Made by a program: the position numbers and the translations under genes
Shown here: positions 399 through 50,277 of the stretch, piece after piece
Layout of the letters: each line of letters begins with the position of its first letter
How positions within the stretch are numbered: the stretch's first letter is position 1
Source of the DNA: an uncultured Methanomicrobiales archaeon
Lineage (GTDB): Archaea > Halobacteriota > Methanomicrobia > Methanomicrobiales > Methanospirillaceae
NCBI GenBank assembly: GCA_963758915.1
Contig: CAVWXH010000009.1
Location: forward strand, 96,001-160,000
DNA: 64,000 nucleotides
Direction of reading: 5' to 3'
The notes under the pieces: generated by a model
Database searches by the model: none
The model's input: only the letters and a program-made list of their open reading frames with translations
What the model was told of the DNA's origin: nothing

Positions 399-736
399 GG
401 CTGGTATGAAAAACTACGGCAAAACAATCAAAATGCCAATTTTTTCATGTGAATCTATGAGCCAGAGGCTCGTAGCACGCTCTGTTGCTATGGTCAAATC
501 TATCTCGCAGATTGGAGTATTCCCAAATTTACCAACGCTCCGGGGGTTCCGCCCCGCTGCTTTGGCGCCCCGGTTGGGATAGAAACTATACCCCAATACT
601 CTGAATTTAATGAGCCTTCGCCGAAACCCTGCCCGAAGAATATCTTAATGGGGGAGGGGCAGGGAGGGGTGAAACCCCATCCTGTCTTCGTATTTCCCTG
701 TTATTTTTTAAGACACCGAAGGGTTTAAACAAAGCC
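399..736 (+). mobile_element. modular MITE copy R1 (D-hairpin-A)
   Basis: Starts GGCTGGTATGAAAAA. Hairpin CTATGAGCC-aga-GGCTCGTAG at 455-475, internal end CGCTCTGTTG at 478, module A about 496-712. Ends GGGTTTAAACAAAGCC. Flanks CATATCCT and CACATCTT match 6/8. Confidence 0.8.
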
Positions 737-961
737 CACATCTTATGAAAAGCCCCTGATCACCGGGAACCTGTACGATCTGCATGGTTATGACGGTTTG
801 CCTGGGCTGCCTGCCAGGCCCCTGGGTCACAGGTATCCATGGTTACCATAGATTTTCTGACAATTTTCACGGGAAGAACAGATAGGGCGTCATCCCTGTT
901 TTAAAAACCACCCGGATACTAGAGCTGTTTTTATGAGCATACACGGAAAATAGCTTCCTGA

Positions 962-1387
962 ATGCAAAAAAATACCCTGGTCCTTGCCATTATAGTTGTG
1001 GTGATACTCATCACGGCCTCTGCGATGGTTCTTACATCCCTGTTCAGGCCTGCCAGTGCAACAGTTTTCTCCGTGACAACGGACAGGGACCTTTACCATT
1101 CCAATGATGTCATGATGATGAAGATCCTCGTTAATTCCACCGGGTTTACAACCGATACCTTTCTAAAAATAGAGGGAATTAAGGATACATATGGCCAGAC
1201 CCGGTTAACTCATAGTATGAATGCAAACCTCACACCGGGGCCGAACATCTTCCTGTACGATTACCATCTCCCCTCCTGCTCTAAGTGTTCAGGACTTGAC
1301 CCAGGTAACTACCCGATCAATGTTTCACTGGTGAAAAACGGGACTGTCGTTTCAAATTTGTCGGTAACCGTTCATTTAGAACAATAA
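962..1387 (+). CDS. secreted/membrane-anchored hypothetical protein with CxxC
   Basis: N-terminal hydrophobic helix, beta-rich body, SCSKC motif, T-rich tract after the stop. Confidence 0.75.
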   Translation: MQKNTLVLAIIVVVILITASAMVLTSLFRPASATVFSVTTDRDLYHSNDVMMMKILVNSTGFTTDTFLKIEGIKDTYGQTRLTHSMNANLTPGPNIFLYDYHLPSCSKCSGLDPGNYPINVSLVKNGTVVSNLSVTVHLEQ

Positions 1388-1527
1388 TTTTTTTTACAGG
1401 ACACATTTCTCACAGGCCTGGTTGCCACAGGCGATATTATCAATCTTTCAGTGCCCATCTTTTCATCCCCTTGTTGAGCTCCACAATCTCAAGTCCGCTT
1501 TCGGTGAGGGTATATTCACTCTTCACA

Positions 1528-1667
1528 GGGACAGGGAATAATCTCCAAATATCTGAAATTTTCTTCCAATGCCCAATTGAACGCTGCAAAAATGAATGTC
1601 TCACCAGGGGTGGGGCAGGGAGGGGGTGAAGCCAACTCCTGGTCTTAAGTTTCTCATTTTTTTAAAT
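1528..1667 (+). repeat. partial MITE module A (subtype A2), copy R2
   Basis: Aligns by eye to 5430-5570 (CAAATxTCTGAAATTT-CTTCCAATG-CCCAATTGAAC; GGGGTGGGGCAGGGAGGGGGTGAA). Confidence 0.7.
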
Positions 1668-2038
1668 TAATACCCAGTTGATTGTTGAATTAACCAAAAT
1701 TATTCATAATAATTCTTCCATAAACCCACAATGGCAATTATAATGAGAATAAATCCGGTGATAGCATAGAAGTAATTGAGTACGCCTGGATATAACGCCA
1801 TGATGGATATGACTATCCCGAGGAAAAGCAGTAAGAAAAAGATAATTCTTGGGCTCATATACCTCTGTTATCTCATTATATGTGATAAATAGGTGGGAAG
1901 GGAGATCACGATTCCATCAGTACACCCGATCACTGCATTTATTTTTAAAAAAAAATATGCAGGGTATCCCCAAAAAACCCAGAATGATACAGTGCGTCTG
2001 GACCAACATTACGATGCACGTGATACCGGGAACCTGAA

Positions 2039-4654: not shown

Positions 4655-5326
4655 ATGGAACTGATAAGCCAGTTTATCCTTCCCTATTGGCTCAACCTGC
4701 TTGCACTCTTCCTGATGGCATTAACCGGCGCAATCGCAGCGATTGAAGAAGGTTACGATATTATCGGTGTGACGGCACTCGCGTTAATTGCCGGGACCGG
4801 TGGGAGCCTTCTTCGGGACATGATCCTCCAGCAGGGGATACCCCTGTTTTTCCGTGACCCTTCGTTCCTCTATGCGGTGGTACTGGCAGTCCTGATCGGG
4901 ATAGTGTTCCGTTCATATATATTTCAAAATAAAAGACCATTCAACATATCATTTCTCCTGTTCGATGCCCTCGGCCTGGGGATATTCGGGGTTGTCGGGA
5001 CCCAGATGGCCTTGTTTGCAGGTCTGGCTTCAGCACCGGCAATACTTACCGGTGTGATAAACGCCACCGGCGGGGGCCTGCTCAGGGATGTGCTGACCGC
5101 TCGTGAACCACTTATTTTCAAGCCCAGCCAGTATTACGCGGCTACATCACTCGCCGGGTGCATAATTTTTGTCGCTATTGCACTGTTGCTGGGCCAGAGC
5201 GCGGTAACTGCTGCGTTCGCTGCGATATTTCTGACATTTTTCCTCCGTGCACTAACCATGTGGTTTGACTGGAAGACGAAACCATTGATTGATGTAACCA
5301 TGCTCCAAAAAAAGAAACAGGAATGA
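4655..5326 (+). CDS. trimeric intracellular cation channel (TRIC/UPF0126, YadS-like) membrane protein
   Basis: Two GGGxLRD repeats, DALGLG, about 7 TM helices. Confidence 0.9.
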   Translation: MELISQFILPYWLNLLALFLMALTGAIAAIEEGYDIIGVTALALIAGTGGSLLRDMILQQGIPLFFRDPSFLYAVVLAVLIGIVFRSYIFQNKRPFNISFLLFDALGLGIFGVVGTQMALFAGLASAPAILTGVINATGGGLLRDVLTAREPLIFKPSQYYAATSLAGCIIFVAIALLLGQSAVTAAFAAIFLTFFLRALTMWFDWKTKPLIDVTMLQKKKQE

Positions 5327-5328
5327 AC

Positions 5329-5760
5329 GGCTCTGTAGAATTTCCCTCAAATCTGTCTTGCAGATTGGTAATTCCAACATTTCATCACGCTCCAGGGGCT
5401 TGCGGCCCGCCGCTTTGGCGACCCCGGTTGGGATAAGGAATGATATTCAAATCTCTGAAATTTCCTTCCAATGTCCCAATTGAACCCTGCCAATGAATAT
5501 CTTATCGGGGGTGGGGCAGGGAGGGGGTGAAACCCCCTCCTGTCACCGTATTCCCACTTTTTTTAAATATGAAGGGTTTCCCATGAAAATACCTGAAGGG
5601 AGCCCAATATAAGGATATTTTGAACGAGGCATTTTCATTGTTTGGGTGTGAACACCCTGTTCATGTGTGTTTCTACAGAGCGTGCTATGAGCCGTTGGCT
5701 CATAGATGAGTATGAAAAAGGTCGTCTTTCAGGTGGTTCGTGGAGTTTTTCATACCAGCC
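5329..5760. mobile_element. modular MITE copy R3 (A forward + B, hairpin, D reversed) with perfect 8-bp TSD
   Basis: Ends GGCTCTGTAGAA and TTTTTCATACCAGCC. Flanked by GAATGAAC at 5321-5328 and 5761-5768. Perfect hairpin CTATGAGCC-gtt-GGCTCATAG at 5685-5705. Confidence 0.9.
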
Positions 5761-5953
5761 GAATGAACAACTAATCCAGGGCTTCGCTGAAAATTTCCCC
5801 TGGTACTTTTTAGCAGTAAAAAGGGAGATTGTACTGACGGGGTCTGAATTGCAGATCCCGGACATCCCCTTTTCAGTATTGTTTTTACCTGGTATGAACA
5901 CGACACAGATAATAATACAGGCAACAATCTGGTTCTTCTTTCCAGCCGTGGAA

Positions 5954-7441
5954 TTATACGTGCCTGATCCCGGTATGATCAGACAGCTCGGAATTTATCG
6001 TGCAAAGGTCCCCGGGGTTCATGCGGTGCACATCGCGGTACCCGGTGAGCCTTGCGAAATCCTTCAGCTCATTTGTTGAAACTCTCAGGTAATTCTCAAG
6101 TTTTTTTGCAGAAATATCAATATTCAGGCGTTTCCGCAGGAGGGGGTCCTGCGTGGTAATCCCCATCGGGCACAGTCCTGTACTGCACAACCGGTACTGC
6201 TGGCAGCCGCATGCCATCAGCGCAGCGGTGCCGATAGCAATGGCATCGGCACCGAGAGCAAGTGCCTTTGCAAAATCCGATGAGACCCTGAAACCCCCGG
6301 TGATAATCAGCGAGATATTCTTTGCACCTTTTTCATCAAGGTGTTTTCTTGCCCGGAACAGTGCGAACGGTGTAGGTACAGAGGTCGCGGCCTTGATAAA
6401 CTTAAAGGCCGCACCCGTTGCACCCGGCCTTCCATCCACGGTGATAAAATCTGCACCTGCATAAATAATCGCGTCCATGTCTTCTTCAATGTGCCCGGCT
6501 GCAATTTTTACACCAACCGGTTTCCCCCCGGATTTTTCGCGGAGCCATTCGATTTTTCTCAATAAATCATCCTGGTTTCTGATGTCCGGATAGATGGCAG
6601 GGCTGACGATGTCAGTACCCACCGGGTACCCCCGTACCTTTGCGATCTCAGGGGTGACTTTCTCTGCCGGGAGTCGGGCACCAAGCCCTGGCTCCGCGGA
6701 CTGTCCGATTTTTATCTCAATTGCATCAACAGATTGCAGGTTTTCATCAGTGACACCATAGAGGTTCGGGACATATTCAAAGATATATTTATAGGCATTT
6801 TCCCTGGATTCCGGGAGAATTCCCCCCTCACCCGAACACATCGCAGTTTTTACCCCGGCACTCCCTTTCGAGAGGGCGATTTTCACTTCCCTTGAGAGTG
6901 CACCAAATGACATGTGGGTAATAAATACCGGGGTTTCGATTACCAGGGGTACTTTTGCAGCCGGGCCGATCACAGTCCTCGTCATGACCTCCTGGTCAGT
7001 ACCCACCGGGATCTTTGCAATCTGCGCCCCCATAATCAGGATATCATCCCAGGAAATCGTCGGTTTCCGGGTCCTCATCGGTTCAATGATTGATTCACCG
7101 GTAATGGCCATGGTATGGATATCTTCCATGTAAACCTCCAGAGGATCTGTTTTTCTTGCCCACCCCTCCTGGTATGCGGGAGAGATCTGTTCATGGATAC
7201 CTGGCGCGGTACCCGGATTTTCAGAGCCGCATACCCTGCATATATAAGCCCTGTCAATCAATCCCTGGCCGGGTTCCCGAGGGACCAGTGTGAGGTGAGT
7301 CCGGTCTGCACCGCATATCGGGCAGTTCCAGCCATCAGGAAATTGTTCAGGTTCCGTTCCTGGTTTGATCCCGGTTGTGGAACTACCCCGGCCAGGTTCA
7401 TATTCAAATGTATTACAGACATTACACCGGTAGAGGGGCAT
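5954..7441 (-). CDS. rubredoxin-fused FMN-binding glutamate synthase family protein (archaeal GltB2-like)
   Basis: N-terminal CNVC...FPDGWNCPICG rubredoxin. MSFGALS, SGEGG, EIKIGQSA and CQQYRLCSTGLCPMGITTQ motifs. Start moved to ATG 7441, which has GGTGA upstream. Confidence 0.9.
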   Translation of the reverse strand: MPLYRCNVCNTFEYEPGRGSSTTGIKPGTEPEQFPDGWNCPICGADRTHLTLVPREPGQGLIDRAYICRVCGSENPGTAPGIHEQISPAYQEGWARKTDPLEVYMEDIHTMAITGESIIEPMRTRKPTISWDDILIMGAQIAKIPVGTDQEVMTRTVIGPAAKVPLVIETPVFITHMSFGALSREVKIALSKGSAGVKTAMCSGEGGILPESRENAYKYIFEYVPNLYGVTDENLQSVDAIEIKIGQSAEPGLGARLPAEKVTPEIAKVRGYPVGTDIVSPAIYPDIRNQDDLLRKIEWLREKSGGKPVGVKIAAGHIEEDMDAIIYAGADFITVDGRPGATGAAFKFIKAATSVPTPFALFRARKHLDEKGAKNISLIITGGFRVSSDFAKALALGADAIAIGTAALMACGCQQYRLCSTGLCPMGITTQDPLLRKRLNIDISAKKLENYLRVSTNELKDFARLTGYRDVHRMNPGDLCTINSELSDHTGIRHV

Positions 7442-7903
7442 GGTTTCACCATTGTATAAGAAATGAGTATTATATGGGGACAGCAAATAACCACCGGTTA
7501 TTAATCCGGCAGCAACCCGGGAACTATTGACCCTGAACCGGACTGATTGCCACGGCCCCTTTAAATAAACAGAGTTGAACCCTGTGGAGGTCCGGGAACG
7601 CGGCTGGAGAGAATATAATCTGCTGACCACGCGAGGCCCTGACAATTTCGCCAGAAAAAGCGCTGTCAAAAATCAGCCCACTCGTCGCACGTTTGCCAGA
7701 TAATATACCACGCTCCATTTCTTCACTTCCCGGTTTAATCCGGGATCTTGGAACAGGTCATAACTTATTGTAAGGATATTTTGAAGTAAATCCTGATTTT
7801 GGCGTGTTTTCAAATCTTTCAACCATTCAGTTCGAAACCTGGCGGAAGACATACATTAAAATTGAAAAGTATCCTACCGTCAGGTACAGGAAGTGAATCA
7901 AGA

Positions 7904-8444
7904 ATGAGAAAAATATATTATATCTGTTTTATTGGCATTTTGTTATCCCTGGCTGCCATTTCCCCGGTGATTGCAATTTCACCGGTAACGACCTTACACA
8001 GCAATTATTTCTACTCTGCAACGCTGCTTAAACCCGGACAGAACAGGTTTGCCGGGTCGGCTGATATGTTCACCCTGGTAAAACCTGCCACAACGTACAG
8101 CCGTTTTGCCTCGTATACCCAGATGTCCACAGGTAATACCCAGACATTTACAGAACGTGATTCCGGTAAAACGGTGACCGTCACCAAAGGGCAGGTCGTA
8201 AAAGTCCTGCTTAACGAGAACCCTACAACGGGATACCGGTGGGAGCCGTCATTAAGCTCAGGCATACAGGTAATGGATGATACCTATGCTGCGTCAACAT
8301 CAGGGAGAATGGGCGCAGGTGGGATTCCATACCTGGACACTCAGGATAACAGGTCCCGGGACCCAGCATTTCGATGCTTCCTACAAGCGCTCGTGGGAGT
8401 CCGGGTCTGCTGATAGTTATTCGATACAGTTTATCGTTGCATAA
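7904..8444 (+). pseudogene. secreted chagasin-family (I42) inhibitor with apparent +1 frameshift at about 8326
   Basis: Signal peptide, NPTTGYRW and MGAGG. The next frame continues HTWTLRITGPGTQHFDASYKRSWESGSADSYSIQFIVA*. Confidence 0.8.
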
Positions 8445-8547
8445 GATTACTAAATCCTGACAACCGATTTTTTTTACTCTGCAGCAGGGTAAATTTTAGT
8501 CTTGTTATCACCATCCAAAAATCGATCCGGCAGATTTCGGGTAACCC

Positions 8548-9052
8548 GGCTGGTATAAAAAACTCCAGGTAACCACTAGAAAGGCCACCATTTCCAATGA
8601 AAATACCTATCCGTGGGGATCTGCAGCCCCCTGAAATCGTTGCATGCCTGCAACTTATTTTCATTCTTTATGCCCGGCCGCTGGGATGTCATCGGCGGTT
8701 AATATGAAAATGATCCCCGGGCATTCAATTTTCATCCTGTATGCATGTGGCCTTCCGGCATCATCTCCGTTTTCATGGTTATCTATGTACCAAAGTGCTC
8801 ATAGCACACCTGGTTGAATCCCTGCGTTATTAGAATAAGGAAGGCAAGATACGTAGACAGGGGGGGTTTCTCACCCCCGACAGGATATCCTTTGGGCAGC
8901 GTTTCCAGGCGATAATAAATTTCCGAGTATCGAAGTGCAGTCTCTATCCCAACCGGGGTCGCCAAAGCGGCGGGCCATGAGCCCCGGAGTATGAGTAAAT
9001 CTGGGAATACCCAGGGTCACCAGGATGGATTTAAGGGCATCTCAACAGAGCC
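8548..9052. mobile_element. modular MITE copy R4 (D, C, degenerate hairpin, A reversed)
   Basis: GGCTGGTATAAAAAACTCC at 8548. Module C 8701-8778 matches 20737-20808. Module A is on the minus strand, about 8810-9012. Ends CAACAGAGCC. No clear TSD. Confidence 0.7.
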
Positions 9053-9056
9053 GTCA

Positions 9057-9219
9057 TTCCAACATTCACTTTGCGCGCCCCTGACTCCACACCACCTTCT
9101 GGAAACCCTGATCATGATAGGGAAGACCACTCGAATCTCTGAAAAATTCCAGGGACCCATTGTGGGCATCCTGCCAATGGGAGTTATCCTAGTGAGTCTG
9201 GGGCAGGGATTGGGGGTGA
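9057..9219 (+). repeat. strongly decayed module A2 copy (R4b)
   Basis: TTCCAACATT, AATCTCTGAAA, CCTGCCAATG and GGGGCAGGGA...GGGGGTGA occur in the same order as in 5372-5530. Confidence 0.55.
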
Positions 9220-9242
9220 TAGGGAACAGAAAAAAAGAATTT

Positions 9243-10907
9243 TTAATGTGTTTTTCGCCTGAAAAGGAATACAGCAACGCAGCATATACCGAGCGCTGAC
9301 AGCACACTAAGCGGGTTTAAAGGTTGTGTTGGCACCGGCGCAACGGGTGAGAGCGCAGCATTAATCTGGACCGACTGTCCCGGGCTTATCTTTCCTGATG
9401 TAGTATATGGCGTATACCCTTCCATTTTTATGGTAACCGTATAGCTCTGTGTCGAATCTATCGGGAAATTCTGTAGGTTCAGTGGGGTGACACCCTTGTA
9501 GATGTTGTTGATATAAACATCCGCGCCTCCTGGTGTGGACATTATCTCGGCACTTGCTGTTCCGGCGGGTTGAGTCCCTGAGGCCTGAAGGGTCGCAGCA
9601 ACCTGTGCGGTCTGCCCCGCGACAATTTTGACCGTGGTCGTGTAGTCCTGGTAGCCGCTCTTCTTCAGGAGAACCGTGTAAGTAGCGGCCGTAAGATCGG
9701 TGATATCGAGCGGACCCGAGGTAGACGTAACCCCCTGGTAGTTACCATTGAGATAGACGGTTGCACCTGACGGTGATGAAGTCACAAGGAGATCGCCGGT
9801 GCTGGGGTTCTGCAGCGGTACAAGGGTAACGCTTGCATAGGTCGTCTGTCCCGCGTAGACACTATAGGTATTAGTGAAAGTCTGGTACCCTGCCATTTTG
9901 AGTTGAACCGTATGTGTGCCTACTACAAGACCACCGACAATCTGGTTCGTTTCACCTTTGTAAATGTTATCAACATACAGTCCTGCCCCTACCGGGATTG
10001 AGCTTACCGAAATGCTACCGGTTTGCGTAACCGGGACAAGATTTGCATATACATTGGTGGTCCCACCGCTGACCACCTGAACATTATTGTTCGAGTATAC
10101 CTGGTACCCTGGCATTGAGACCTGTACGTTATGCCATCCAGTGGCAACATTGTAGAATGTTCCCGATGTAACGAGTGAGTCCTGCCCGTTATCAAGGACT
10201 GCAGTGGCCCCGGAAGGGGATGATGAAACATAGATATTTCCGATCTGCTGGACCGGTGTTAATTGTGCATAAATGTTTACAGTCTGTCCGGCAGCAGGAT
10301 TACCTGCAACTGACTGGGTCCATGTCTGGTACCCGGTCGCCGAGACGACGATGGTGTGACCCGGCGTACCGGTTGTACTCACATCAACGGTCACCGGGGT
10401 TGTCCCGACATACTTACCATCAAATGTTACAGACCCGGCCGGACTCGACTGGATGCTGTAATATCCCTTTTCGCCTCCTGGCGGGGGAGTAGCCGGAAGA
10501 GTCACCGGTATAGGAATCAGTTGTGCATTTACTGACACAGTTCCCCCTGCTGGGGGATTACCAGAGTAATACTTCGACCAGATCTGGTACCCTTCCTTAG
10601 AAACCGTTATTGTATGCCCGGGTGTACCGGTCACATATACCGTTGCAGTTGTTGGCGTTGATCCGACATTTGTCCCGTCAACTGATGCCATCGCCCCGGA
10701 AGGAGATGACGAGATCGCGTAATAACCTTCCTGGCCCCCAATGGGGTTCGATATAGAGGGAGTATCCGATGCCGTTACAGGATATGTCGAAATAGATGGA
10801 TATGTCGTTATCGGATACGTCGTAACATCTGCCGCTGACACAGATGAAACCGTTGCCAGTGCCACGACTAACACAAGCATGATCATGATCAGGTTTTTTG
10901 TTTTCAT
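9243..10907 (-). CDS. multi-PEGA-domain cell-surface protein with C-terminal TM/basic sorting tail
   Basis: Signal peptide, about six S-S-P-x-GA..G-TP repeats, C-terminal PLNPL-TM-RRK. Confidence 0.85.
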   Translation of the reverse strand: MKTKNLIMIMLVLVVALATVSSVSAADVTTYPITTYPSISTYPVTASDTPSISNPIGGQEGYYAISSSPSGAMASVDGTNVGSTPTTATVYVTGTPGHTITVSKEGYQIWSKYYSGNPPAGGTVSVNAQLIPIPVTLPATPPPGGEKGYYSIQSSPAGSVTFDGKYVGTTPVTVDVSTTGTPGHTIVVSATGYQTWTQSVAGNPAAGQTVNIYAQLTPVQQIGNIYVSSSPSGATAVLDNGQDSLVTSGTFYNVATGWHNVQVSMPGYQVYSNNNVQVVSGGTTNVYANLVPVTQTGSISVSSIPVGAGLYVDNIYKGETNQIVGGLVVGTHTVQLKMAGYQTFTNTYSVYAGQTTYASVTLVPLQNPSTGDLLVTSSPSGATVYLNGNYQGVTSTSGPLDITDLTAATYTVLLKKSGYQDYTTTVKIVAGQTAQVAATLQASGTQPAGTASAEIMSTPGGADVYINNIYKGVTPLNLQNFPIDSTQSYTVTIKMEGYTPYTTSGKISPGQSVQINAALSPVAPVPTQPLNPLSVLSALGICCVAVFLFRRKTH

Positions 10908-11256
10908 TTTAGTCCTCTGTATAGTGTTTTTAGTCTTTTCCTAGGGTTATATAGTAATCGATTGTATATGACTTTCTTTCCTTGAGGGATAGAAATACCC
11001 GGGGAATAAAAACAACGGGTCTTGGTTTTTATAATAAAAAGCTATCAATTCCTTAATTACGGAATTCTATGCCCTGATACAATCGGATAGAGGATCCACA
11101 GGCCTGTTGCGCCACAATGGATTATTTTTTAAGCCTCTGTGCTAGTGAACAGAAAGTATATACTTACCGGAATTGAAAATAAGACAATAATTTCAGTGTT
11201 TAAGCACCAGGACCGGTTAAACCGGCTGGTACCAGACCTCTGATCAGGAGTATTTA

Positions 11257-11808
11257 ATGGATTACGCCATACCCCTCATCATCCTCGTGGCGAGGATTGT
11301 CGAGACCAGCCTTGACACCATCCGTACGGTCTATATCAGTAAAGGTCATTCAAACCTTGCTGCAAATATCGGTGTTGTAAAAATCGGTATATGGCTCCTC
11401 TCGACCGGGCTGGTACTTTCAAACCTGAATGATTACTGGAGCATTTTTGCATATATTGCAGGATATGGTATTGGGACCCTTCTCGGAACGGAAATTGAAA
11501 AGATCATATCGATAGGGTCTGTAATCGTCCGCCTTATCACGCGTGATGACCCCTCGGACATGATTGATCGGCTCTCAAAAAAGGGATATGGCCTTACAAG
11601 GCTTGAAGGATCGGGGAGTTTTTCAGATTCAGTTACCGTGATCCTGATGATTGTCCCGCGAAGCGAGCAGTCGGTGCTGGTTTCGATTCTATCGAGGGAA
11701 TATCCTGATGTACTGTACACGATTGAGGATGTCCGGTCCTTAAAAGGCGGGGCTGTAATATTCCACAAGGATACCAAAAGCAGGATACTCGGATTTTTCG
11801 GGTTCTAA
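11257..11808 (+). CDS. UPF0316/DUF2179 (DUF5698) membrane protein
   Basis: ARIVETSLDTIR, AYIAGYGIGT and GYGLT..G.G motifs. Confidence 0.85.
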   Translation: MDYAIPLIILVARIVETSLDTIRTVYISKGHSNLAANIGVVKIGIWLLSTGLVLSNLNDYWSIFAYIAGYGIGTLLGTEIEKIISIGSVIVRLITRDDPSDMIDRLSKKGYGLTRLEGSGSFSDSVTVILMIVPRSEQSVLVSILSREYPDVLYTIEDVRSLKGGAVIFHKDTKSRILGFFGF

Positions 11809-12125
11809 AAAAAGTCCCCAAATGAGATGAACTTCCTTTCATTCCATTACCATTCTCTCGAAGACCTGCAGGGATTACGAATTCCCTGCGCAATTGCTTT
11901 TACAACAGGAAGATACTAACACCCTGCAAACCACGTTGGCAATACAGTAACCGGATACCATCCCCTGGTTTTCATCGGGACTGGTACCGGTAGTAATATC
12001 CCGGGTTACCGCAATCACAACTCCTGCGGAGACATCGGATGCTTTGCCTGAATGTTGAGTATAGAGAAATCAAAAACCCGCAGGGCACGCATCGTCAGTC
12101 GAACCGGGAAACGCACGGAAAATTA

Positions 12126-12386
12126 CGCTGTTGAAAAGCTATAATAGGCACCCAGAATCCTGATTTTTCTGAAATTTATCTACGCTCTCGGGGCTCCGCC
12201 CCGCCGCTGTGGCGCCCCGGTTGAGATAGAGACTACCCCCCCAATACATTGAAATTAATGAGCCTTCGGGAAACCCTGCCCGAAGAATATCTTAATGGGG
12301 GTGGGGCAGGGAGGGGGTGAAACCCCCTCCTGTCTTCGTATTTCCCTCTTAATTTTTTTATATTACTAAAGGGTTTCAACAAAGCC
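12126..12386 (+). mobile_element. modular MITE copy R5 (module A only) with perfect 8-bp TSD
   Basis: Ends CGCTGTTGAAA and GGGTTTCAACAAAGCC. Flanked by GAAAATTA at 12118-12125 and 12387-12394. Confidence 0.9.
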
Positions 12387-12391
12387 GAAAA

Positions 12392-13114
12392 TTATAAAAA
12401 TTCCGTCTTTTCAGCAATGGGGAGGACATCTGGGTTCGAAGACCGGCTGTCCAGGGTATGACCAAGCAGCAGATAATCAAGGTGTTCTCCCGGAGGGATA
12501 GTTTCCATTGATCGGTGTACAAGGTAGACCACAATAAGCAACCCGATAATATCGCCCAGGAAATCAGTTACCGAATCAACCAGGCCAAAATTATAGGTAG
12601 TAATGTAGATCAGGTCAATCAGGTACTCGGAGAACTCCCAGGCGAAGCTGAAAATTAACAGGATTACAACGATCCCGGCAAGGACGTCCCCTTCCTGCGT
12701 CCTGAAAATGCGTATCCTCTTTTTAAAAAAGGGCCTCTTTTTCACGTACTCCAGGTAATCGAGGTACTGGTACATGGTGAACAGGATAAGCCCGAGCGCA
12801 ATCGCTGATACAACATGGGCGAGTTTATCAAAAAACGGCACCTCCCAGTACCACCGCATAATCCCACCTGCTACATGGAGGAACAAGGCAAAAGGTACTG
12901 CCATCTTCAACCCGAATGGCAATGATACCTTATCCCTCAATTCAAAGGCAAACGGGACCAGCGTAAGGAAAATAGCGATCAGGGGCCAGAGGGAACGGGT
13001 CACGTCACCGATGAGTATCGACTGAATGTACAGCCCGATAAATATTAATTCAAAAACAAGGGCAATAACAATCTCTGCATTCCTTGCGTTATACACTGAC
13101 CCGTTTCCATTCAT
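12392..13114 (-). CDS. DUF2238/VanZ-like polytopic membrane protein
   Basis: FLH..G, FDKLAH, WEFSEY and DSVTD motifs. About 6 TM helices. Confidence 0.7.
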   Translation of the reverse strand: MNGNGSVYNARNAEIVIALVFELIFIGLYIQSILIGDVTRSLWPLIAIFLTLVPFAFELRDKVSLPFGLKMAVPFALFLHVAGGIMRWYWEVPFFDKLAHVVSAIALGLILFTMYQYLDYLEYVKKRPFFKKRIRIFRTQEGDVLAGIVVILLIFSFAWEFSEYLIDLIYITTYNFGLVDSVTDFLGDIIGLLIVVYLVHRSMETIPPGEHLDYLLLGHTLDSRSSNPDVLPIAEKTEFL

Positions 13115-17537: not shown

Positions 17538-18329
17538 TCAGACAAGAAGTTTTCCAGATAACACATGGACCGCGTGGCCTTCAAGGATTACGCGATCTCC
17601 AATCAGTTTGACACGGACCGACCCCCCTCGGGCCGAACACTGGAACCCGACCATCTCCCTCTTTTTTAATTTCTCCCCCCAGTAAGGCGCAAGACAGCAA
17701 TGAGCCGAGCCGGTCACCGGGTCTTCCGGAACGCCAACTGACGGCGCAAAGAACCGGGAGACGAAGTCGATGTGCGGGAGGTCGGATACTGCCGTGACAA
17801 TGATGCCCCGGGCCCGGATAGCGGTGAGGGCGTTTATGTCGGGTTCGAGACTACAGACATCATCCGCGAGTGGCAGTTCCACTAAGATATCGAACCGGTT
17901 CCGGCCGGTATACAACGGCTCGACCCCGAGCGCCTGGCCTAGACCGGGTACCGGCATGGATGTGGCAGCCGGCTCTGCCGGGAAGTCCATGCTTATCCAA
18001 TCTTCCTCCTTCCGGATGACCAGTGCACCGGAGAGGGTCTCAAAGGTGATAGGTTTCTCCCGTGAAACACGACCGGTCTCCCATAGCACCGATGCGGCGG
18101 CGAGTGTGGCATGGCCGCACAATTCTACTTCCTTTTCGGGAGTGAACCACCGCAGTTTCCAGTTCTCTCCCTCAGGGAACAGGAACGCGGTCTCGGAATG
18201 CTTCAGCTCAGCCGCCACCTGCTGCATCCATGCCGCTTCGGCCTGACCATCCGGGATACAGACGCCCGCCGTGTTACCACTGAACGCGGAGCTGGTGAAG
18301 GCATCAACGAGGTGCAGTTCTGCTTGCAT
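17538..18329 (-). CDS. PhzF-family isomerase
   Basis: VDAF..GN.AGV, SETAF, LCGHATLA and EDPVTGSAH motifs. Confidence 0.93.
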   Translation of the reverse strand: MQAELHLVDAFTSSAFSGNTAGVCIPDGQAEAAWMQQVAAELKHSETAFLFPEGENWKLRWFTPEKEVELCGHATLAAASVLWETGRVSREKPITFETLSGALVIRKEEDWISMDFPAEPAATSMPVPGLGQALGVEPLYTGRNRFDILVELPLADDVCSLEPDINALTAIRARGIIVTAVSDLPHIDFVSRFFAPSVGVPEDPVTGSAHCCLAPYWGEKLKKREMVGFQCSARGGSVRVKLIGDRVILEGHAVHVLSGKLLV

Positions 18330-18496
18330 AGAGGAGAGATTACATGCCGGTGCGTATAAAAATTCTGGAGGGAAGGTAATCGTCGTTTAAAGAGGATTTC
18401 GTTATGACCGCCGCTTCAAAGCGATGATTAAGGGACAGGAAATACGGTTACAGGGAATATCCTGGCGGTTAAGTCCGGGTGGTTCTCCAGGGCCAC

Positions 18497-18537
18497 TGGC
18501 CTTTCAGATTATTTTGCAGGAGTTTTTTATATCAGCC
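18497..18537 (-). repeat. isolated MITE module D (R9)
   Basis: Reverse complement GGCTGATATAAAAAACTCCTGCAAAATAATCTGAAAGGCCA matches 8548-8588 and 24044-24085. Confidence 0.7.
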
Positions 18538-18658
18538 GATAGTTGAAAAAATCAGATTACGCCGGTTGCGACCCTCCAGCGGATGATACCATTACCGGGT
18601 CCACCGTCAGAAGGGTAAAGCGGGGTTAGAACACCCCATTATTCAGTCCTGGTTTCTT

Positions 18659-20560
18659 TCAGTGGATACCGGTAAACCGGTAAAAACCTACAGGCACTAT
18701 TATTTCGAATCGTGCGCCTTTGCCTGGTTTACCGGTCTCCTGAATAATGATACCGGTAATAGACAGGATTTCCCGGCAGAGAAAAAGACCAAGTCCGGTA
18801 TTTTTCCCAAAACTCCGTTCGAAGATCTTTTCTTTTTCATCTTCCGGAATACCAATACCATCGTCTTCAAAAATCAGGCTAAGTCCGTCTCCGGTTTCTT
18901 CGTACCGGAGAATCAGTTCTGTCACAACTCCGGCGTGTTTCAGGACGTTGTCAACAAGGGTTAAAAAGGCGTTCTCAAGCAGTGGATCTGCATAAATTTC
19001 CAGGTTATGTACATTAATCTTCCGTGACATCTCCAGGGGTGGCAGGTGCGAAATTGCCATGACGAACACATGGCTCACATTCTGCCACCTGGGTTGATGA
19101 ATTCCCATATCCTGGTAATTTTTTGCAAACTGTAAGCTCCCAACTATTTTTTGCGTCAGCATTTCACTTTTTTCAAGGTGTTTTTTCTGTGTTTCATCGA
19201 CGAGATCCATGCGGATTAACCAGAGATATCCGGAGAGGGTAAAGATTGCGCTGCTGATGTCCTGGAATGTAAGCGTGTTCAGGAGGTTCAGTTTCTTGCG
19301 GGCCTGTTCAAGGGCCTGCTGGCTTTTATTGACTTCCCTGATACCTTCCCGCAACGCCTGTTCAGTGGCCATGAGTTCTTCATATGCTGCACTGAGTTCC
19401 TCATTCGCCCGTGATAGTTCCGATTCAACCTGTTTACGGTTATTAATTTCCGTTTCGAGTTTTAAAACCGAGGCCGCAAGTTGTTCAGTACGGTCCCTGA
19501 CCCTGGATTCAAGTTCCTCTTCTGTCCGCTTGCGGTCCGTTATATCCAGGAGGACACCCCTGATACCTGCAGGCCTGCCGTTATGAACGATGGTATCTGA
19601 ATAGACAATGACCGGGAATGTGCTGCCATCCTTCTTTCGAGCAGTATACTCAATTCCACCAGGCTTTTCTCCCCGTAACTGAGCAGCAAAAAACATTGCT
19701 GCCCGTTCCCGGTCACCGGGTACCAGCATTTCCATGCAATTTATGCCATTCTTAAGTTCTTCATTTGTAAATCCAAAGGTTTCAAGGGCAATACGGTTTG
19801 TCGAGGTAACAGTCCCCCACTCATCAGTTTCAAAAATCGTCTGGGGCAACAGCTCAACGAAATCCTTGAATTTTTTCTCACTCTCCGCGATTTTACGATC
19901 AAACTCTGCCCGCCGGTTCTCGAGCCCCAGGATCCCGACCATAACAGCGATCATGGCAAGGATGCCGATAATGAAGACGACCATGTTTGCACGGTTCAGC
20001 CCTGCCATGACGACATAGCTGTCCATGTCAACACCAACAATGCCCACAACATTTCCTGATCGGTCTCTGATCGGGGAAAAGCCTGATAATACAGTCCCCC
20101 ATTCATCTGTTGTAAATTCTCGGTTGGCCGTAGGGGTGAGGAAACCCTGGATTAGTCCGGGTTCGGGTCCAGGATACACATCTCCGATATTCGCCGCTAA
20201 CGGGTCGTACCCGTAATCACCATCAACCACAAACTCAACCGCGTCACCGTTTTTTCGCATGGTATAGATGGCCCGGATATCCGGCGTCACCTGTAAAGCA
20301 TGCCTGATCTGGTCCCTGATACGGACAAAACGCGGTGTATCTTCTTCGCCGCTTTTTATCTGTGCGAATTCATCACCATCAACCTGGGACGCCATTACCG
20401 ATGCAACGGAGACCAGCTTTTCCTGTACTCCCTCTTTCAGAGATTTTTGCGTTTCCAGTGAAATTGAATATACGGCGAGGAATGTTATAACGAGAATCAA
20501 TATGAGTAACAGAATTGAAATATTACGGGGAATCTTAACATTCATGCCAGGTTCACTCAC
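18659..20560 (-). CDS. membrane sensor (Cache-like extracellular domain + PAS) histidine kinase-like protein
   Basis: Two TM helices around the DEWG..LSGFSPI sensor domain, PAS (RKKDGS.FPV), and HATPase (DDGIGI, TGLGL). The H-box His appears replaced. Confidence 0.9.
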   Translation of the reverse strand: MSEPGMNVKIPRNISILLLILILVITFLAVYSISLETQKSLKEGVQEKLVSVASVMASQVDGDEFAQIKSGEEDTPRFVRIRDQIRHALQVTPDIRAIYTMRKNGDAVEFVVDGDYGYDPLAANIGDVYPGPEPGLIQGFLTPTANREFTTDEWGTVLSGFSPIRDRSGNVVGIVGVDMDSYVVMAGLNRANMVVFIIGILAMIAVMVGILGLENRRAEFDRKIAESEKKFKDFVELLPQTIFETDEWGTVTSTNRIALETFGFTNEELKNGINCMEMLVPGDRERAAMFFAAQLRGEKPGGIEYTARKKDGSTFPVIVYSDTIVHNGRPAGIRGVLLDITDRKRTEEELESRVRDRTEQLAASVLKLETEINNRKQVESELSRANEELSAAYEELMATEQALREGIREVNKSQQALEQARKKLNLLNTLTFQDISSAIFTLSGYLWLIRMDLVDETQKKHLEKSEMLTQKIVGSLQFAKNYQDMGIHQPRWQNVSHVFVMAISHLPPLEMSRKINVHNLEIYADPLLENAFLTLVDNVLKHAGVVTELILRYEETGDGLSLIFEDDGIGIPEDEKEKIFERSFGKNTGLGLFLCREILSITGIIIQETGKPGKGARFEIIVPVGFYRFTGIH

Positions 20561-20637
20561 GCAGTGATAATTTTATCAGGGGTTCCACGCTTATAGGTTT
20601 CGTTTATTTTAGGGGTTTTTCCAGATTTGCAATTTTT

Positions 20638-21059
20638 CGCTCTGTTGAAACACACATGAACGGAAAGTTCACACCCGGGCTATGAAAATGCCCTTTCAAA
20701 ATCACTTCATATTGGAGTTCGTTCACGCATTTATACAATATGAAAATCCCCACTGGCAATTTCATGTTGTATGCTTGTGGCCCTTCGGCATCATGCCTGT
20801 TTTCATGGGAAATCCTCTCGAATCTATCTTGCAGATTGGTAATTCCAAAATTTCATCACGTTCCCGGGTCTCACGGCCCGCCGCTTTGGCGACCCCGGTT
20901 GGGATAGAGACGATTCCCCCAATACTCTGAATTTAATGAGCCTTTGGAAAAACCTGCCTAAAAGATATCTTGTCGGGGGTGGTAGAGGGAGGGGTGAAAT
21001 TCCCTCCTTTTATGTATTTTACCTTCCTGTTTCTAAACAAGCAGGGTATCAATATAACC
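20638..21059 (+). mobile_element. modular MITE copy R6 (B-C-A)
   Basis: Starts CGCTCTGTTGAAACACACATGAAC. C module about 20737-20808, A module about 20809-21040. Decayed end GGGTATCAATATAACC. Confidence 0.8.
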
Positions 21060-21567
21060 TATAATCCGAAAGGCGCGTCCCATTTGTGGGCACAGGTATT
21101 ACAATGACATTTCGCTACCATTTGTCCGGTTTCAGTAGTGACAAGGTCGTCAAACTCTGTATCTTTTGATTTACAGTTCGGACAAAGAATATCTGCCATA
21201 TGGAAAGATCACCGGGAAACCGAAAGCTACTGTCAGAATACTATGATTTCAGGGTATTTCAACCTCACTAAACACAGAGAAGGTTATTGCCATCCATTGG
21301 GGGGGCCGGGGGTTTCCTACTTCTTCAGCTGGCACCTGGGTCCTGGCGAGTCCCTGTCTGGCATTGTGATCCCGGGCCATGAACCTGACAACTACCTCCC
21401 GGTTTCCCGGATATAGTAGTTCAGAATGCAGACTGCGGAAGCGTCACCTCGGAAGGTCTAATATACACGGGGTACCTTATGGAATCCTGTAGGAGTTCAC
21501 TTAGAACAACTCCTGACTCACAAATCAGGCTGGCAGTACCCTGGCCGTGGGCAGGATACAGGGGACC

Positions 21568-22599
21568 ATGTTTGAAATTGCGGTCATCACCATAGTACTT
21601 GCGTTGGTATTCACCTTTACCAACGGGTTCCAGGACGCGAGTTCTCTCGCAGCTACATTTATTGCGTCCCGTTCAGCAACCCCGAAGCAGGGTGTTATCT
21701 TAATTGCATTCGTGTCATTCCTGGGGGCAATCCTTGGTGGAAGTGCCGTGGCATTTACCTTGTCGGGACTGATTACCACGGGTTCGGGGACCCAGACCAT
21801 ATGGATAATGTTTGTAGCAATAACTGTCGCGATCGGCTGGAACCTCATCACCTGGTGGTTCGGCCTTCCTTCTTCATCAACCCACGCATTAATAGGAGGC
21901 CTGATCGGTGCAGGAATGGCATCGGCCGGAATTGGAGGGGTTTTATGGGGCGTGGGGGGCCTGGCCGGGCCGTCGCACCAGCTTGAAGGGGTCGTTAAAA
22001 TTCTCGTCTTTTTCATTCTCTCCATCGTTATCGGGTTTGCAGGCAGTTTTTTTTTACACAAGATCACCATGCTGCTACTCCGGAATGCAAAACGGAAGAT
22101 AAATACTGGTATTATGCACCTGAACTGGATAGCAGCGGCAGTGATGGGTTTTTTCAACGGGGCAAATGATACCCAGAAGCAGCTTGGTATCATCGCCCTG
22201 GTGTTGTTTGCCGCCGGCCAGACTTCTTCCCCTGATCTGATACCCGTCTGGGCACGCGTTGCCTGTGCGGTACTGATGAGTGTGGGGATAATCGGGGGTG
22301 GATGGCGGATCATGCATACACTTGGCAACCGCTTGTTTAAGATTGAACCAGTCCATTCCTTTGATTCCCAGTTTTCTTCAGGTGCAGCCATAGCAGTTTC
22401 CACGATTGCAGGGGCCCCGGTCTCTTCAACACAGGTCATCACCTCCTCGGTACTGGGGGTCGGGGCTGCAGAGAATGCACGAAAAGTTAAATGGTCGGTA
22501 GGAAAGGATATCCTCATTGCAATGCTGGTAACAATCCCATCAACAACCATCGCAGCCGCCCTGATGTATACGGTTATTTCCCCATTCACAGGAGCCTGA
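21568..22599 (+). CDS. pit: PiT-family inorganic phosphate transporter
   Basis: NGFQDAS, PSSSTHALIGG, GANDTQK and PVSSTQ motifs. Confidence 0.92.
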   Translation: MFEIAVITIVLALVFTFTNGFQDASSLAATFIASRSATPKQGVILIAFVSFLGAILGGSAVAFTLSGLITTGSGTQTIWIMFVAITVAIGWNLITWWFGLPSSSTHALIGGLIGAGMASAGIGGVLWGVGGLAGPSHQLEGVVKILVFFILSIVIGFAGSFFLHKITMLLLRNAKRKINTGIMHLNWIAAAVMGFFNGANDTQKQLGIIALVLFAAGQTSSPDLIPVWARVACAVLMSVGIIGGGWRIMHTLGNRLFKIEPVHSFDSQFSSGAAIAVSTIAGAPVSSTQVITSSVLGVGAAENARKVKWSVGKDILIAMLVTIPSTTIAAALMYTVISPFTGA

Positions 22600-23286: not shown

Positions 23287-23371
23287 TGCGAGGGATGGGA
23301 TTTGAACCCAAGAACCCCTTCGAGACTAGGCCCTCAACCTAGCGCCTTTGACCTAACTTGGCTACCCTCGC
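23287..23371 (-). tRNA. tRNA-Leu(GAG)
   Basis: GCGAGGG acceptor stem, CTAGG-TTGAGGG-CCTAG anticodon arm, long variable arm, GGTTCAAATCC. CCA is not encoded. Confidence 0.96.
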
Positions 23372-23543: not shown

Positions 23544-24044
23544 ATGTGGTCTGATATCATTCACGAGTTTGCCGATTCCCCGTCCCAGAGTAAAGTAGTA
23601 CGTTTTCTGCTCGAGAACGGTTTTGGTATCAACAATTCCGGCCGGGTAACGTGTAACGGGATTGAGGTCCCTGCCACGCAGATCGCAAAGGCAATCGGAT
23701 CTGACCGCCGCGTTGTCGATGCAACAGCGCACCGTATCCTTACCATACCATCGCTCCGCGAGATCTTCATCAGGATGAGGGTGACTCCGGACCTGTCAAA
23801 TGTCGCCGAATCACTCGGGCTTACGGTAATAACGGTCCTCCCTAAAAATGCTTCAGAGCGGGGAATTGTCGGCGCTGCAGTCAGGGTACTCAGCGGTCAC
23901 AGCCTCTCTATCCGCCAGATATTTGTTACAGACCCGCAGTTGTCAGAAGAGCCAAAACTCGTTATTATTGTCGATGAAGTACTCCCCCATGGTGTCATCG
24001 AGGAGATCCGGGCCCTTCCCCAGGTAAGAAAAGTAATTATTTAG
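23544..24044 (+). CDS. ACT-domain amino acid metabolism regulator (COG2150-like)
   Basis: N-terminal HTH-like IAKAIGSDRRVVD and C-terminal ACT domain (SIRQI..TDP). Confidence 0.85.
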   Translation: MWSDIIHEFADSPSQSKVVRFLLENGFGINNSGRVTCNGIEVPATQIAKAIGSDRRVVDATAHRILTIPSLREIFIRMRVTPDLSNVAESLGLTVITVLPKNASERGIVGAAVRVLSGHSLSIRQIFVTDPQLSEEPKLVIIVDEVLPHGVIEEIRALPQVRKVII

Positions 24045-24524: not shown

Positions 24525-24541
24525 AAAAAAACGACTTATTG

Positions 24542-47570: not shown

Positions 47571-48996
47571 CTGCCACATCTCCTGGGATATCCCTTCCTG
47601 AGGCCTGGACTAAGATACCCTGGTCTTTTTTACGCCACCTGCTCTCCGTTGTCCACTCCGGTGGCAGGCCATGGTTTTTTCGCCATTCCTCAAGATGGTT
47701 GTACCATGAACGCATCAGTTCCGGGTTTTTGTTCCCGATCTCTTCAAGCACTGCAATATCACTGGACGGACACATAAAACAGCCGATCCGGTCAAGTCCC
47801 TTCTCATAGAGAATATTATAAGGTCCTTTTTCCCGGAAGATATACAACCAGACATGCATGGCAGTCCAGTTCTGGATCGGTGCTGCAGAGAGCTGGTTCC
47901 GAACATTGCTGTTCCGCCAGACACGGTTTGAAATCGCCCGTTTAAACGACTCGTACTTTCGCTGGCCAATGAACGAGAGGCATTCACCCCATTCCTCTGA
48001 TATCGCCCGTTTTACCGGTTTCAGTTTACATACACCGCAACACCAGCGGTAATCGACTGCAGGCGGCCCCTGGCGGGCAAACGTCTCCCAGAACTCTTTC
48101 TCACCTGAACACCTGACCGCCGTAAGCCCGTAATGTTCGATTGTCTCCTCCACGCACTTGTATGTCTCGGGAAACTCAAGGCCGGTATCAGCGAAAAGTA
48201 TTGGTACCTTCCCTATCGCTTTCATTACCACGAGAAGCGTGGCAAGGCTGTCCTTGCCTCCTGAGAACGAGACATTGACCGGGAGCGGGTTTCTCTCCGT
48301 GACCTCATGGATAAACTGGACCGCTGCAGCCTCAGCTTTTCCAAGGACGACTGCGTTCGCCCTGACGGCATCTTCCCATGTCGCCTGCCCGGGTAGTACA
48401 TCAGACCGTACATTCCTTCGCGTCCTTACAATTGCACCCCGTTCCATCGATTCTGCCGTGGAGGCATCAACCTTGGCCCTTCCGACACCGGCACACTCAC
48501 CGGAACGGGTGAAGATGAAGACCTCGTCCCCTGCATCGACCGAGGGGTCAATATGTACAAGTCCCGGCCTGAGCACACTTGCTCCTTCCAGGAGTGATTG
48601 TTTGGCACCGTCATCAACAATTACGAAGCGCTTCGTTGGTTTTAACAATACAGCCGCTTCGGGGCGGGGGATCGGCTCCCATGCCCGTCTTTCCGGCATG
48701 TAGCGTATGGACCCGACAACAGCACCTGCAACGACGATCTCCTCCATCCGGTCCGGGTCAGGGACTTTATTCAGGAGCGCAATGTGGCCCGGGGGGATCA
48801 AAGAGGCCCCGAAATGGTCAGAAAAGATCCGGTTGACGAGATCGATATCATATATGAAGGCGGGCCGGGCATCCCCCGGCGGGGTAACCGGCACCTCACG
48901 GGTGAATGCCCCGCAGGCACACTGACGCGACATGACCGGGGTATGACAGGAATCACACCAGCGGAGCAGGATTTTTCCAAGATAAGACGGGCACAT
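47548..48996 (-). CDS. PAPS/APS reductase-family protein with Zn-ribbon and PUA domain
   Basis: WCDSC, PUA domain, SFSGGKDS, RWCC.VCK and RIGCFMCP motifs. Confidence 0.88.
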   Translation of the reverse strand: MCPSYLGKILLRWCDSCHTPVMSRQCACGAFTREVPVTPPGDARPAFIYDIDLVNRIFSDHFGASLIPPGHIALLNKVPDPDRMEEIVVAGAVVGSIRYMPERRAWEPIPRPEAAVLLKPTKRFVIVDDGAKQSLLEGASVLRPGLVHIDPSVDAGDEVFIFTRSGECAGVGRAKVDASTAESMERGAIVRTRRNVRSDVLPGQATWEDAVRANAVVLGKAEAAAVQFIHEVTERNPLPVNVSFSGGKDSLATLLVVMKAIGKVPILFADTGLEFPETYKCVEETIEHYGLTAVRCSGEKEFWETFARQGPPAVDYRWCCGVCKLKPVKRAISEEWGECLSFIGQRKYESFKRAISNRVWRNSNVRNQLSAAPIQNWTAMHVWLYIFREKGPYNILYEKGLDRIGCFMCPSSDIAVLEEIGNKNPELMRSWYNHLEEWRKNHGLPPEWTTESRWRKKDQGILVQASGRDIPGDVADEEDSNC

Positions 48997-49115
48997 TCTC
49001 GCGTAATATTCGAAGCAGGAGGATAAATATGGAGGGGATCATGCAACAGAACGGGGCAGGGCCGATAGGGTTGTCCCGGTTATTCTTATCACTCCACCTG
49101 ACAACATGTTCATGT

Positions 49116-49964
49116 ATGTTTGAATCCGTATCAAGGAGTTTTACCCTCATTAAGGAGAGCTGGAAGGTTCTTTCCCTGGATAGGGAGATCCTCCTTTTCC
49201 CGGTGCTTTCAGGGATTGCATTGCTATTCATCCTTATTTCATTCGTGTTACCGGTCCTGTTCCTGGGAGATAGCAGGCCGGCCTTCTCAGGAGGGCTCTT
49301 CCTTGTTAGTCTCTTCCTCTTCTACCTGCTCTGCTACTTTGTCGTGATCTATTTCAATACCGCACTGATTACCTGCGCACGGATACGGCTGACAGGGGGA
49401 AACCCGGTGTTTATGGATGGTATCAGGAATGCAAATGCACATATCGTACCGATATTCATCTGGGCAATGATATCAGCGACAATCGGGCTGGTCCTCCATT
49501 TGCTCCAGGAAAGGGCCGGATTTATCGGGCAGATCATTCTCGGGCTTATCGGGGCGGCGTGGAGCCTGATCACGTACTTTGCCATTCCCGTGATGATTTT
49601 TGAGGAGAAAGGACCGCTGGAGGCAATACAGCAGTCAGCCTCGCTGTTCCGTAAGACCTGGGGAGAGACCCTGGTCGGACAGGTGTCAATCGGGATCGTC
49701 TTTGTACTTCTCGGGATCGCCGGGTTAATCCCGGTTTTCCTCGCGCTGATGTCCGGTATTTTCCCATTGTTCCTCATTTTGCTTGCGGTTTTCATCATCT
49801 ATGTTGCAATACTGATGGTAATCGGATCGAGCCTGCAGGGTGTATATAATACTGCACTGTATCTCTATGCAACGACAGGGAATGTACCGGAGGCCTATTC
49901 AAAAGAACTGATTGAAAATGCATTTGCCCCAAAACCCGTCGGGGGTATGAGAGGAAATATTTAA
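49116..49964 (+). CDS. DUF6159-family membrane protein
   Basis: SWKVL...LLFP, KTWGE and ALYLYA motifs. About 6 TM helices. Confidence 0.75.
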   Translation: MFESVSRSFTLIKESWKVLSLDREILLFPVLSGIALLFILISFVLPVLFLGDSRPAFSGGLFLVSLFLFYLLCYFVVIYFNTALITCARIRLTGGNPVFMDGIRNANAHIVPIFIWAMISATIGLVLHLLQERAGFIGQIILGLIGAAWSLITYFAIPVMIFEEKGPLEAIQQSASLFRKTWGETLVGQVSIGIVFVLLGIAGLIPVFLALMSGIFPLFLILLAVFIIYVAILMVIGSSLQGVYNTALYLYATTGNVPEAYSKELIENAFAPKPVGGMRGNI

Positions 49965-50013
49965 AATATGGCCCCCCCAAATTCGGGGCTATCCCCTTTT
50001 TTGCAGAATTTTT

Positions 50014-50277
50014 AGCTTTGTTGACATCTTCGAAAATCCATCTTACAGATGTTGGGGTTCCTCTGAATTTACTCACTCTCCCGGGGCTCCGCCCTGCCGC
50101 TCTGGCTGCCCTGGTTGGGATGGGAAAATGGTCACGGAAGTCTGAAATTTTTGGGAGTCCGGATGTTAAACCCTGGCCAAAAAGAATCATATTGGGGGTG
50201 GAGCAGGGACGGGGTGAAACCCCCTCCTGTAAACGTATTTTTCATTCTATTGTTACACACCGGATGTCAACAAAGTC
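50014..50277 (+). mobile_element. divergent MITE copy R8 (module A variant)
   Basis: 13-bp perfect TIR: CTTTGTTGACATC (50016-50028) and GATGTCAACAAAG (50263-50275). Contains GGGGCTCCGCCC and GGGGTGAAACCCCCTCCTG of module A. Confidence 0.8.

Follow-up and report, generated by a model that had tools for sequence, protein, structure and literature searches.

A modular repeat family in the window and its genome

The 64,000-nucleotide (nt) stretch of DNA analyzed here (hereinafter the window) covers positions 96,001 to 160,000 of contig CAVWXH010000009.1 from an uncultured Methanomicrobiales archaeon (G000:C9:96001-160000, where G000 stands for the source genome, a Methanoregulaceae-type genome of 2.38 Mb in 18 contigs and 94% complete; its two closest sister genomes are referred to as G006 and G010). 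Dispersed along this window are short, related repeats, which are almost certainly non-autonomous transposons, that is, miniature inverted-repeat transposable elements (MITEs), moved by a DDE transposase of the IS5 family encoded elsewhere in the genome. A first-pass annotation, made from the letters of the window alone, had listed eleven related intervals. All but one of them belong together; the doubtful member is 9057-9219 (no strand assigned), because 9057-9184 matches only itself in the genome, with only the 30-nt G-rich stretch at 9185-9214 resembling the common core of the family (70-77%).

BLAST searches with the window copies against the whole genome returned 1243 matches that merge into about 195 loci, amounting to 47,683 bp, or 2.0% of the genome, and to about one copy per 12 kb. 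The earlier figure of about 10 copies is accordingly apt for the window but not for the genome. The window holds nine of the 195 merged loci, since 8548-9219 and 24044-24524 each merge and the eleven listed intervals thereby become nine; no additional window copy was recovered at E<1e-5. A repeat scan of the window links the listed intervals to each other through a 73-nt G-rich stretch occurring six times and through many long direct and inverted pairs. The build of the family is modular: a 153-nt core, present at 152 loci and containing two GC-rich hairpins and a four-run G motif, is combined with several alternative arms and with further modules, namely C (76 loci), B (46 loci), and the D/E pieces (about 20-25 loci), the last of these being rich in ATGAAAAT/ATTTTCAT. 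By length, the dated copies group at about 260, 340-357, and 432 nt, with a full span of 154-571 nt; truncation or nesting is common in the family. Identity reaches 96-99% in the most similar pairs of copies, as against a median of 80%. Six mechanically called open reading frames (ORFs) that overlap window copies have no Pfam match. Its members are short, numerous, and dispersed, and they lack a transposase gene, as MITEs do by definition.

The basic form of the element is seen in the 261-nt copy at 12126-12386 (plus strand), which is 98% identical to a copy at G000:C3:78862 and whose tips are abutted by an exact 8-bp duplication, GAAAATTA, at 12118-12125 and 12387-12394 (whole feature 12118-12394). 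The 432-nt copy at 5329-5760 (plus strand) joins a 354-nt element, with tips GGCTCTGTAGAA and TTCTACAGAGCG, to an inverted B module at 5683-5760, and its tips abut the exact duplication GAATGAAC at 5321-5328 and 5761-5768 (whole feature 5321-5768). The 354-nt copy at 24171-24524 (minus strand), which has an inverted core and a C module, lies between exact copies of AAAAAAAC at 24163-24170 and 24525-24532, again directly at the tips (whole feature 24163-24532). These are the three exact duplications that the first-pass annotation had reported, and its 6/8 match between CATATCCT and CACATCTT in the flanks of the copy at 399-736 is likewise found; the latter is a composite MITE (plus strand) with a B end module at 399-478 followed by a 258-nt element at 479-736.

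The remaining copies are less complete or more complex. Next to the 354-nt copy, a 107-nt mini element at 24044-24150 (plus strand) consists of a B module and two fused tips and has no visible 8-bp duplication; compared with the empty site in G006 it shows no extra 8 nt, unlike its 354-nt neighbor, and its first base completes a TAG where G006 reads TAA (window 24041-24044). The copy at 8548-9052 (minus strand) is an old composite, in which a B module split by a nested 170-nt piece (8597-8766) precedes a core-inverted element ending in the tip CAACAGAGCC. The 422-nt copy at 20638-21059 (plus strand) has C and D modules ahead of its core, a degenerate right tip, and flanks without a match, and the older 264-nt copy at 50014-50277 (plus strand) has the tips AGCTTTGTTGACATC and GATGTCAACAAAGTC with a 5/8 match of its flanks. 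A truncated copy at 1528-1667 (plus strand) retains a core piece with the G-rich hairpin and no recognizable tips, and a solo fragment at 18497-18537 (minus strand) corresponds to nt 1-41 of the B module (80 nt). Synteny with G006 and G010 is broken immediately to the left of this fragment (window 18384-18497), and the first 580 nt or so of a query covering 17800-21900 map to other contigs in these two genomes. The window also contains a 33-nt stretch repeated four times at a spacing of about 220-237 nt (9411-10133), inside the minus-strand ORF 9243-10907, where it probably reflects a repeated protein domain.

Inverted tips, target duplications, and empty sites

The element tips read NGCT(C/T)TGT(A/T)GAAA or GGCTGGTATGAAA, as described in the first-pass annotation, with GGCTCTGTAGAA, GGCTTTGTTGA, and GGCTGGTATGAAA as the types seen, and they pair in inverted orientation, forming terminal inverted repeats. 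With no more than two mismatches allowed, the genome contains 438 occurrences of the tip motif GCTTTGTTGAAA, compared with 103 when it is reversed; exact tips number 56 for GCTTTGTTGAAA, 39 for GCTCTGTAGAAA, and 18 for GCTCTGTTGAAA. Pairing each forward tip with each reverse tip 60-1600 nt away gave 213 pairs, false pairs included, whose flanks were compared in all registers. An 8-bp flank duplication was exact in 19 of these pairs and matched at 7 or more of the 8 positions in 33; the only register to stand out was that of eight bases starting one base outside GCT, with neighboring registers giving 0-2 matches. Genome-wide copies are therefore flanked by 8-bp duplications far more often than expected by chance, as the first-pass annotation had anticipated. 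Among the 79 core loci with tips on both sides, the flanks match at 8/8 positions in 18, at 7/8 in 14, and at 6/8 in 8, whereas none of them reaches 7/8 when, as a control, the right flank is displaced by 5 nt. The duplicated 8-mers are 74% A+T (50% for the genome), and their positions 3-7 are nearly always A or T.

Further evidence for insertion comes from the two closest genomes, whose flanks are about 90-93% identical to those in the window. The site of 12126-12386 is empty in G010, with a single GAAAATTA, and that of 5329-5760 is empty in both G006 and G010, with a single GAATGAA(T); these are unoccupied sites with one 8-mer, the search for which in related strains had been proposed in the first-pass annotation. 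Both elements of 24044-24524 are missing from G006, while G010 has a copy of different build only a few bases away, so that this A-rich spot was hit twice. The copy at 50014-50277 is missing from G010; its G006 counterpart has a B module and a different left arm. At the place of 20638-21059, G010 has 277 nt of other sequence. The orthologue of 8548-9052 in G006 is about 90% identical and is without the nested piece 8597-8766. That of 399-736 in G010 is a 258-nt element without B and with a 7/8 duplication, and in G006 a deletion left only a 15-nt tip. Altogether, three copies in the window have no counterpart in either of the two closest genomes, and the family displays the presence/absence polymorphism with intact empty sites by which MITEs are recognized. 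Given these three absences and the best copy pairs with 96-99% identity, the family has been recently active; it is also abundant and well supported. Beyond the two sister genomes, the 261-nt copy has matches in each of the 12 further congeneric genomes searched, in 16 of 24 in the family, and in one of 16 in other families of the order.

The B module deserves separate consideration. It is an 80-nt unit with the tip GGCTGGTATGAAA and at nearly all of its 46 loci directly abuts the tip of a complete element, whatever follows that tip. As the duplications flank the B-containing composite as a whole, the outer tip of B works as an end. Orthologous elements differ between G000 and the sister genomes in whether they have B; a second insertion into the old duplicated 8-mer, followed by recombination between cores, might explain such differences. 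The D/E pieces sit inside a ..CATTT/TCATGG.. motif of B or C (the slash marking the junction), without an obvious duplication, and are a second layer of insertion or duplication in the family. In the window, D/E-type pieces of about 70-170 nt occur in B and C modules at 8597-8766 and 20740-20808.

The partner insertion sequence and its relatives

When the tip pairing was widened to 5 kb, it recovered a 1092-bp insertion sequence (IS) at G000:C6:46019-47110, bounded by the exact 8-bp duplication TAAATAAC and with the left tip GGCTGGTATGAAAAA and the right tip GGCTCTGTAGAATTC. On the left, the element opens with the 80-nt B module (GGCTGGTATGAAAAA...), behind which comes an inner tip, CGCTCTGTAGAAATC; over its leftmost 93 nt it shares 99% identity with a MITE end at C3:420310-420402. 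The element has a 285-codon frame that matches PF01609 (DDE_Tnp_1) at 72 bits (cut-off 23) and the NCBIfam model NF033579, 'IS5 family transposase', at 203 bits (cut-off 140), and the Y-2-R-3-E-6-K motif is readable in its translation; this is the only strong DDE_Tnp_1 match in the G000 genome. An IS5-type transposase gene outside the window had been postulated in the first-pass annotation; the gene located here lies within the same tips and an 8-bp duplication. We infer that this type of IS supplies the enzyme for the MITEs. Their interior does not derive from that of the IS, there being no match beyond its left 93-101 nt, except for a 55-nt IS fragment at C10:117513-117566, which adjoins another MITE. 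Elsewhere in the genome, related IS5-type transposases are represented by nothing more than degenerate relics (34-49% identity), at C3:83494-84336 and C3:326867-327329, one of them split and inverted beside a MITE.

The transposase frame stays open to the end of the element and terminates only in the flank, as is also the case in four of five relatives that were translated (L006, L012, L042, and L051). In the partner IS (frame L001:757-1614, equivalent to G000:C6:46256-47113), the TAA is supplied by the duplicated 8-mer, being its first three bases. The lengths of database homologues range from 289 to 456 amino acids, and some of these proteins are named after a neighboring gene; this scatter of lengths fits a frame that lacks an internal stop and ends in whatever flanks the element.

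Relatives of the partner transposase with 55-75% protein identity are frequent in records from Methanoregula, Methanolobus, and Methanosarcina. Among 33 related loci that were inspected, 17 proved to be elements without B, about 1007 bp long in all cases but one (1094 bp), which end in the same tips and are flanked by an exact 8-bp duplication. These ISs (loci L006-L051, termed only 'IS5 family transposase' in their sources) share the tips GGCTCTGTAGAA and the 8-bp duplications with the partner IS but differ from it in having no B module and in having the start codon in frame. A DNA query with the IS has matches in two of the 12 other same-genus genomes (G001 and G004), all of them again without B. 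In a Methanomicrobiaceae record (L052, 1344-2437), a related IS has an 85-nt extension of its right end that is closed by a second copy of the tip, with an exact 8-bp duplication flanking the longer form, in parallel to the B module.

Farther afield, translated matches in plasmid records are for the most part to IS5-family genes of haloarchaea (about 30% identity), including members of the ISHvo2, ISH28, and ISHma13 families. The first-pass annotation had likened the ends of the repeats to those of ISH1, after which the 'ISH1 group' of the IS5 family is labeled in ISfinder. The ends of ISH1A, from a Halobacterium salinarum plasmid, are TGCCTCGTTGAATC and, on the other strand, TGCCTTGTTTTGCC; the left one matches the family tip GGCTTTGTTGAAAC at 10 of 14 positions, and both begin with NGC. 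ISH1A, whose group was the only one of the IS5 family compared at the protein level, has a transposase that aligns over its full length with the partner transposase at 25% identity (E 1e-15). ISH1/ISH1A and the partner IS are both about 1.1 kb long, with one transposase gene and an 8-bp duplication; they differ in that the partner IS resides in methanogens rather than haloarchaea, has the extra 80-nt end module, and has a frame without an internal stop. The likeness to ISH1 is therefore real in the ends and in the length of the duplication, whereas the transposases are only distantly related. The ISH1 target duplication is given as the 8-mer AGCCGCCA in a passage of an earlier publication (PMC7002104).

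IS5-derived MITEs of archaea are an already known kind of element, those of methanogens and haloarchaea being in print according to passages of two articles (PMC3852290, PMC7002104). In the first, MITEs from Methanosarcina and Methanococcoides are tabulated with IS5-type partners, namely ISMac15, ISMma12, ISMba19, and ISMbu10 (Kamoun et al., 2013). Going by the properties listed there, rather than by sequence, these Methanosarcinales elements resemble the present family in being short, non-coding, and resident in methanogens, with 15-17-nt inverted ends and lengths of 140-252 bp; they differ in having 5-24 copies and duplications of 0 or 3 bp, as against about 195 loci, 8 bp, and a modular build (PMC3852290). 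A 2026 survey of archaeal ISs reports a high IS content in a Methanoregula genome and, in its accessible part, does not treat MITEs (PMC13343696). No description of the present MITE family was found in the literature searched, though ISfinder and the supplements of the papers may contain one; the family itself is probably a new member of this known kind.

Competing explanations, genomic placement, and significance

In the mechanism that we propose, an IS5-family DDE transposase made elsewhere in the genome would recognize the MITE tips, cut out or copy the element, and insert it into an A/T-rich 8-mer, which would thereby be duplicated; the B module, with its tip GGCTGGTATGAAA, can replace one end, on MITEs as well as on the partner IS. 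Several observations weigh against assigning the repeats to a transposase of this kind. The sole full IS copy in the assembly, when compared with 14 relatives, has a 1-nt insertion after about codon 6, just downstream of a ribosome-binding site and a start codon that are conserved. The native, conserved start is therefore out of frame, and translation from it meets a stop after 10 codons, which leaves a TTG, 15 codons downstream, as the sole possible start of the long frame. Between the IS tips and the most frequent MITE tip, GGCTTTGTTGAAAC, there are two or three differences. No IS match was found at E<=1e-40 in the MITE-rich genomes G006 (83% complete) and G010 (97% complete). Finally, recognizable tips on both sides are present in only those 79 of the 152 core loci, and 39 of the 79 have flanks that match at no more than 5/8 positions; such low matches are expected for old copies, yet they lend no added support. 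The first three of these points, along with the presence of just one full IS among the 18 contigs of a genome that is 94% complete, would equally suit an alternative in which the repeats are still MITEs while the IS at C6:46019 is defunct, their enzyme being supplied, now or in the past, by another IS copy that has since been lost, is unassembled, or is in other cells of the population. We give this a chance somewhat short of even: the remaining frame is open for 285 codons with its catalytic motifs intact, and the exact 8-bp duplication and the B end 99% identical to a MITE end argue for recent movement of the partner IS. The incompleteness of the assemblies may also hide further IS copies.

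A different class of explanations concerns what the elements carry or how they move, and draws on their genomic placement. With gap classes taken from rough gene calls on long ORFs, copies occupy 83 of 395 convergent gaps (a fifth of these), 66 of 1025 tandem gaps, and 15 of 384 divergent gaps, which are avoided (chi-square 89). Gene starts lie at least 22 nt from the 32 dated copies, except for a 27-nt overlap with a called ORF at C9:211807-212291. The excess in convergent gaps, together with the 75 of the 187 G-quadruplex-type motifs of the genome ((G3+ N1-7)x4) that fall in MITE loci (40% of the motifs in loci covering 2% of the genome) and the recurrence of segment 12272-12334 in MITE-like repeats with the same kind of tip in another genus (36 matches in genome G020), is what one would expect if the GC-rich core were a functional cargo, such as a 3'-end or terminator element, a protein-binding site, or a small RNA, that is kept by the host and spread by the transposon. 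We nevertheless regard this as unlikely. Strand-specific terminator function was rejected, with orientation in tandem gaps being even (21 vs 27, p 0.47). So was a structured RNA under selection: pair-by-pair comparison of 95 distinct core copies on both strands revealed decay without compensation, with two-sided changes numbering 0-6 per predicted plus-strand pair and 12 for one minus-strand pair, against 0-51 broken cells per predicted pair on either strand, and RNAalifold found almost no structure in the alignment of the 95 copies. Rfam at the gathering score identified only two tRNAs in the whole window (the minus-strand genes at 23287-23371 and 55030-55101) and, even at E<=1, nothing in 5300-12420, an outcome that favors the interpretation in the first-pass annotation. 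The many truncated or nested copies also speak against a conserved cargo. Far more improbable still is that the repeats are palindromes like the repetitive extragenic palindromic (REP) or PATE elements, moved by a tyrosine (HUH) transposase of the IS200/IS605 or RAYT type. The strong hairpins and the small D/E pieces at a fixed ..CATTT/TCATGG.. motif without an obvious duplication are reminiscent of such elements; however, IS200/IS605-type and REP elements have neither target duplications nor inverted tips. Here 8-bp duplications and inverted tips are the rule, the tips match those of a DDE IS, and these features, together with the empty site in G010, contradict an HUH origin for the family as a whole.

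For the placement of the IS5-type MITEs, the simplest reading would be a preference for A/T-rich targets combined with the loss of copies that hit promoters or genes. Insertion at stop codons as a rule was suggested by two of the three dated window copies, the left copy of GAATGAAC including the stop codon (5324-5326) of ORF 4655-5326 and the right copy of GAAAATTA that (12392-12394) of the minus-strand ORF 12392-13114; it was discarded, as only four of 32 dated copies genome-wide lie within 12 nt of a gene end by the same rough gene calls. A more elaborate scenario can be conceived. In it, the core, whose four-run G motif overlaps a perfect hairpin and which is kept across genera better than the tips, would be a cargo required for mobilization or adopted by the host at gene ends, given the 40% of the G-quadruplex-type motifs and the fifth of the convergent gaps that involve the family; B would be a separate mini-element that lands at resident tips and serves as a new transposition end. 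We hold this combination to be unlikely; to our knowledge, end-targeting of the kind that B would then perform has not been described for IS5-family elements.

These elements are an ordinary kind of mobile DNA and involve no new mechanism; their abundance is the main notable point. They represent a MITE family of very high density in an uncultured genus of methanogens from peat and sediment, for which a partner IS is identified while the sister genomes carry MITEs without a detectable IS. For genome annotation, it follows that many intergenic 'conserved' stretches and spurious ORFs in these organisms are these MITEs, and the family bears on the assembly and binning of Methanoregulaceae genomes and on strain typing by insertion polymorphism.

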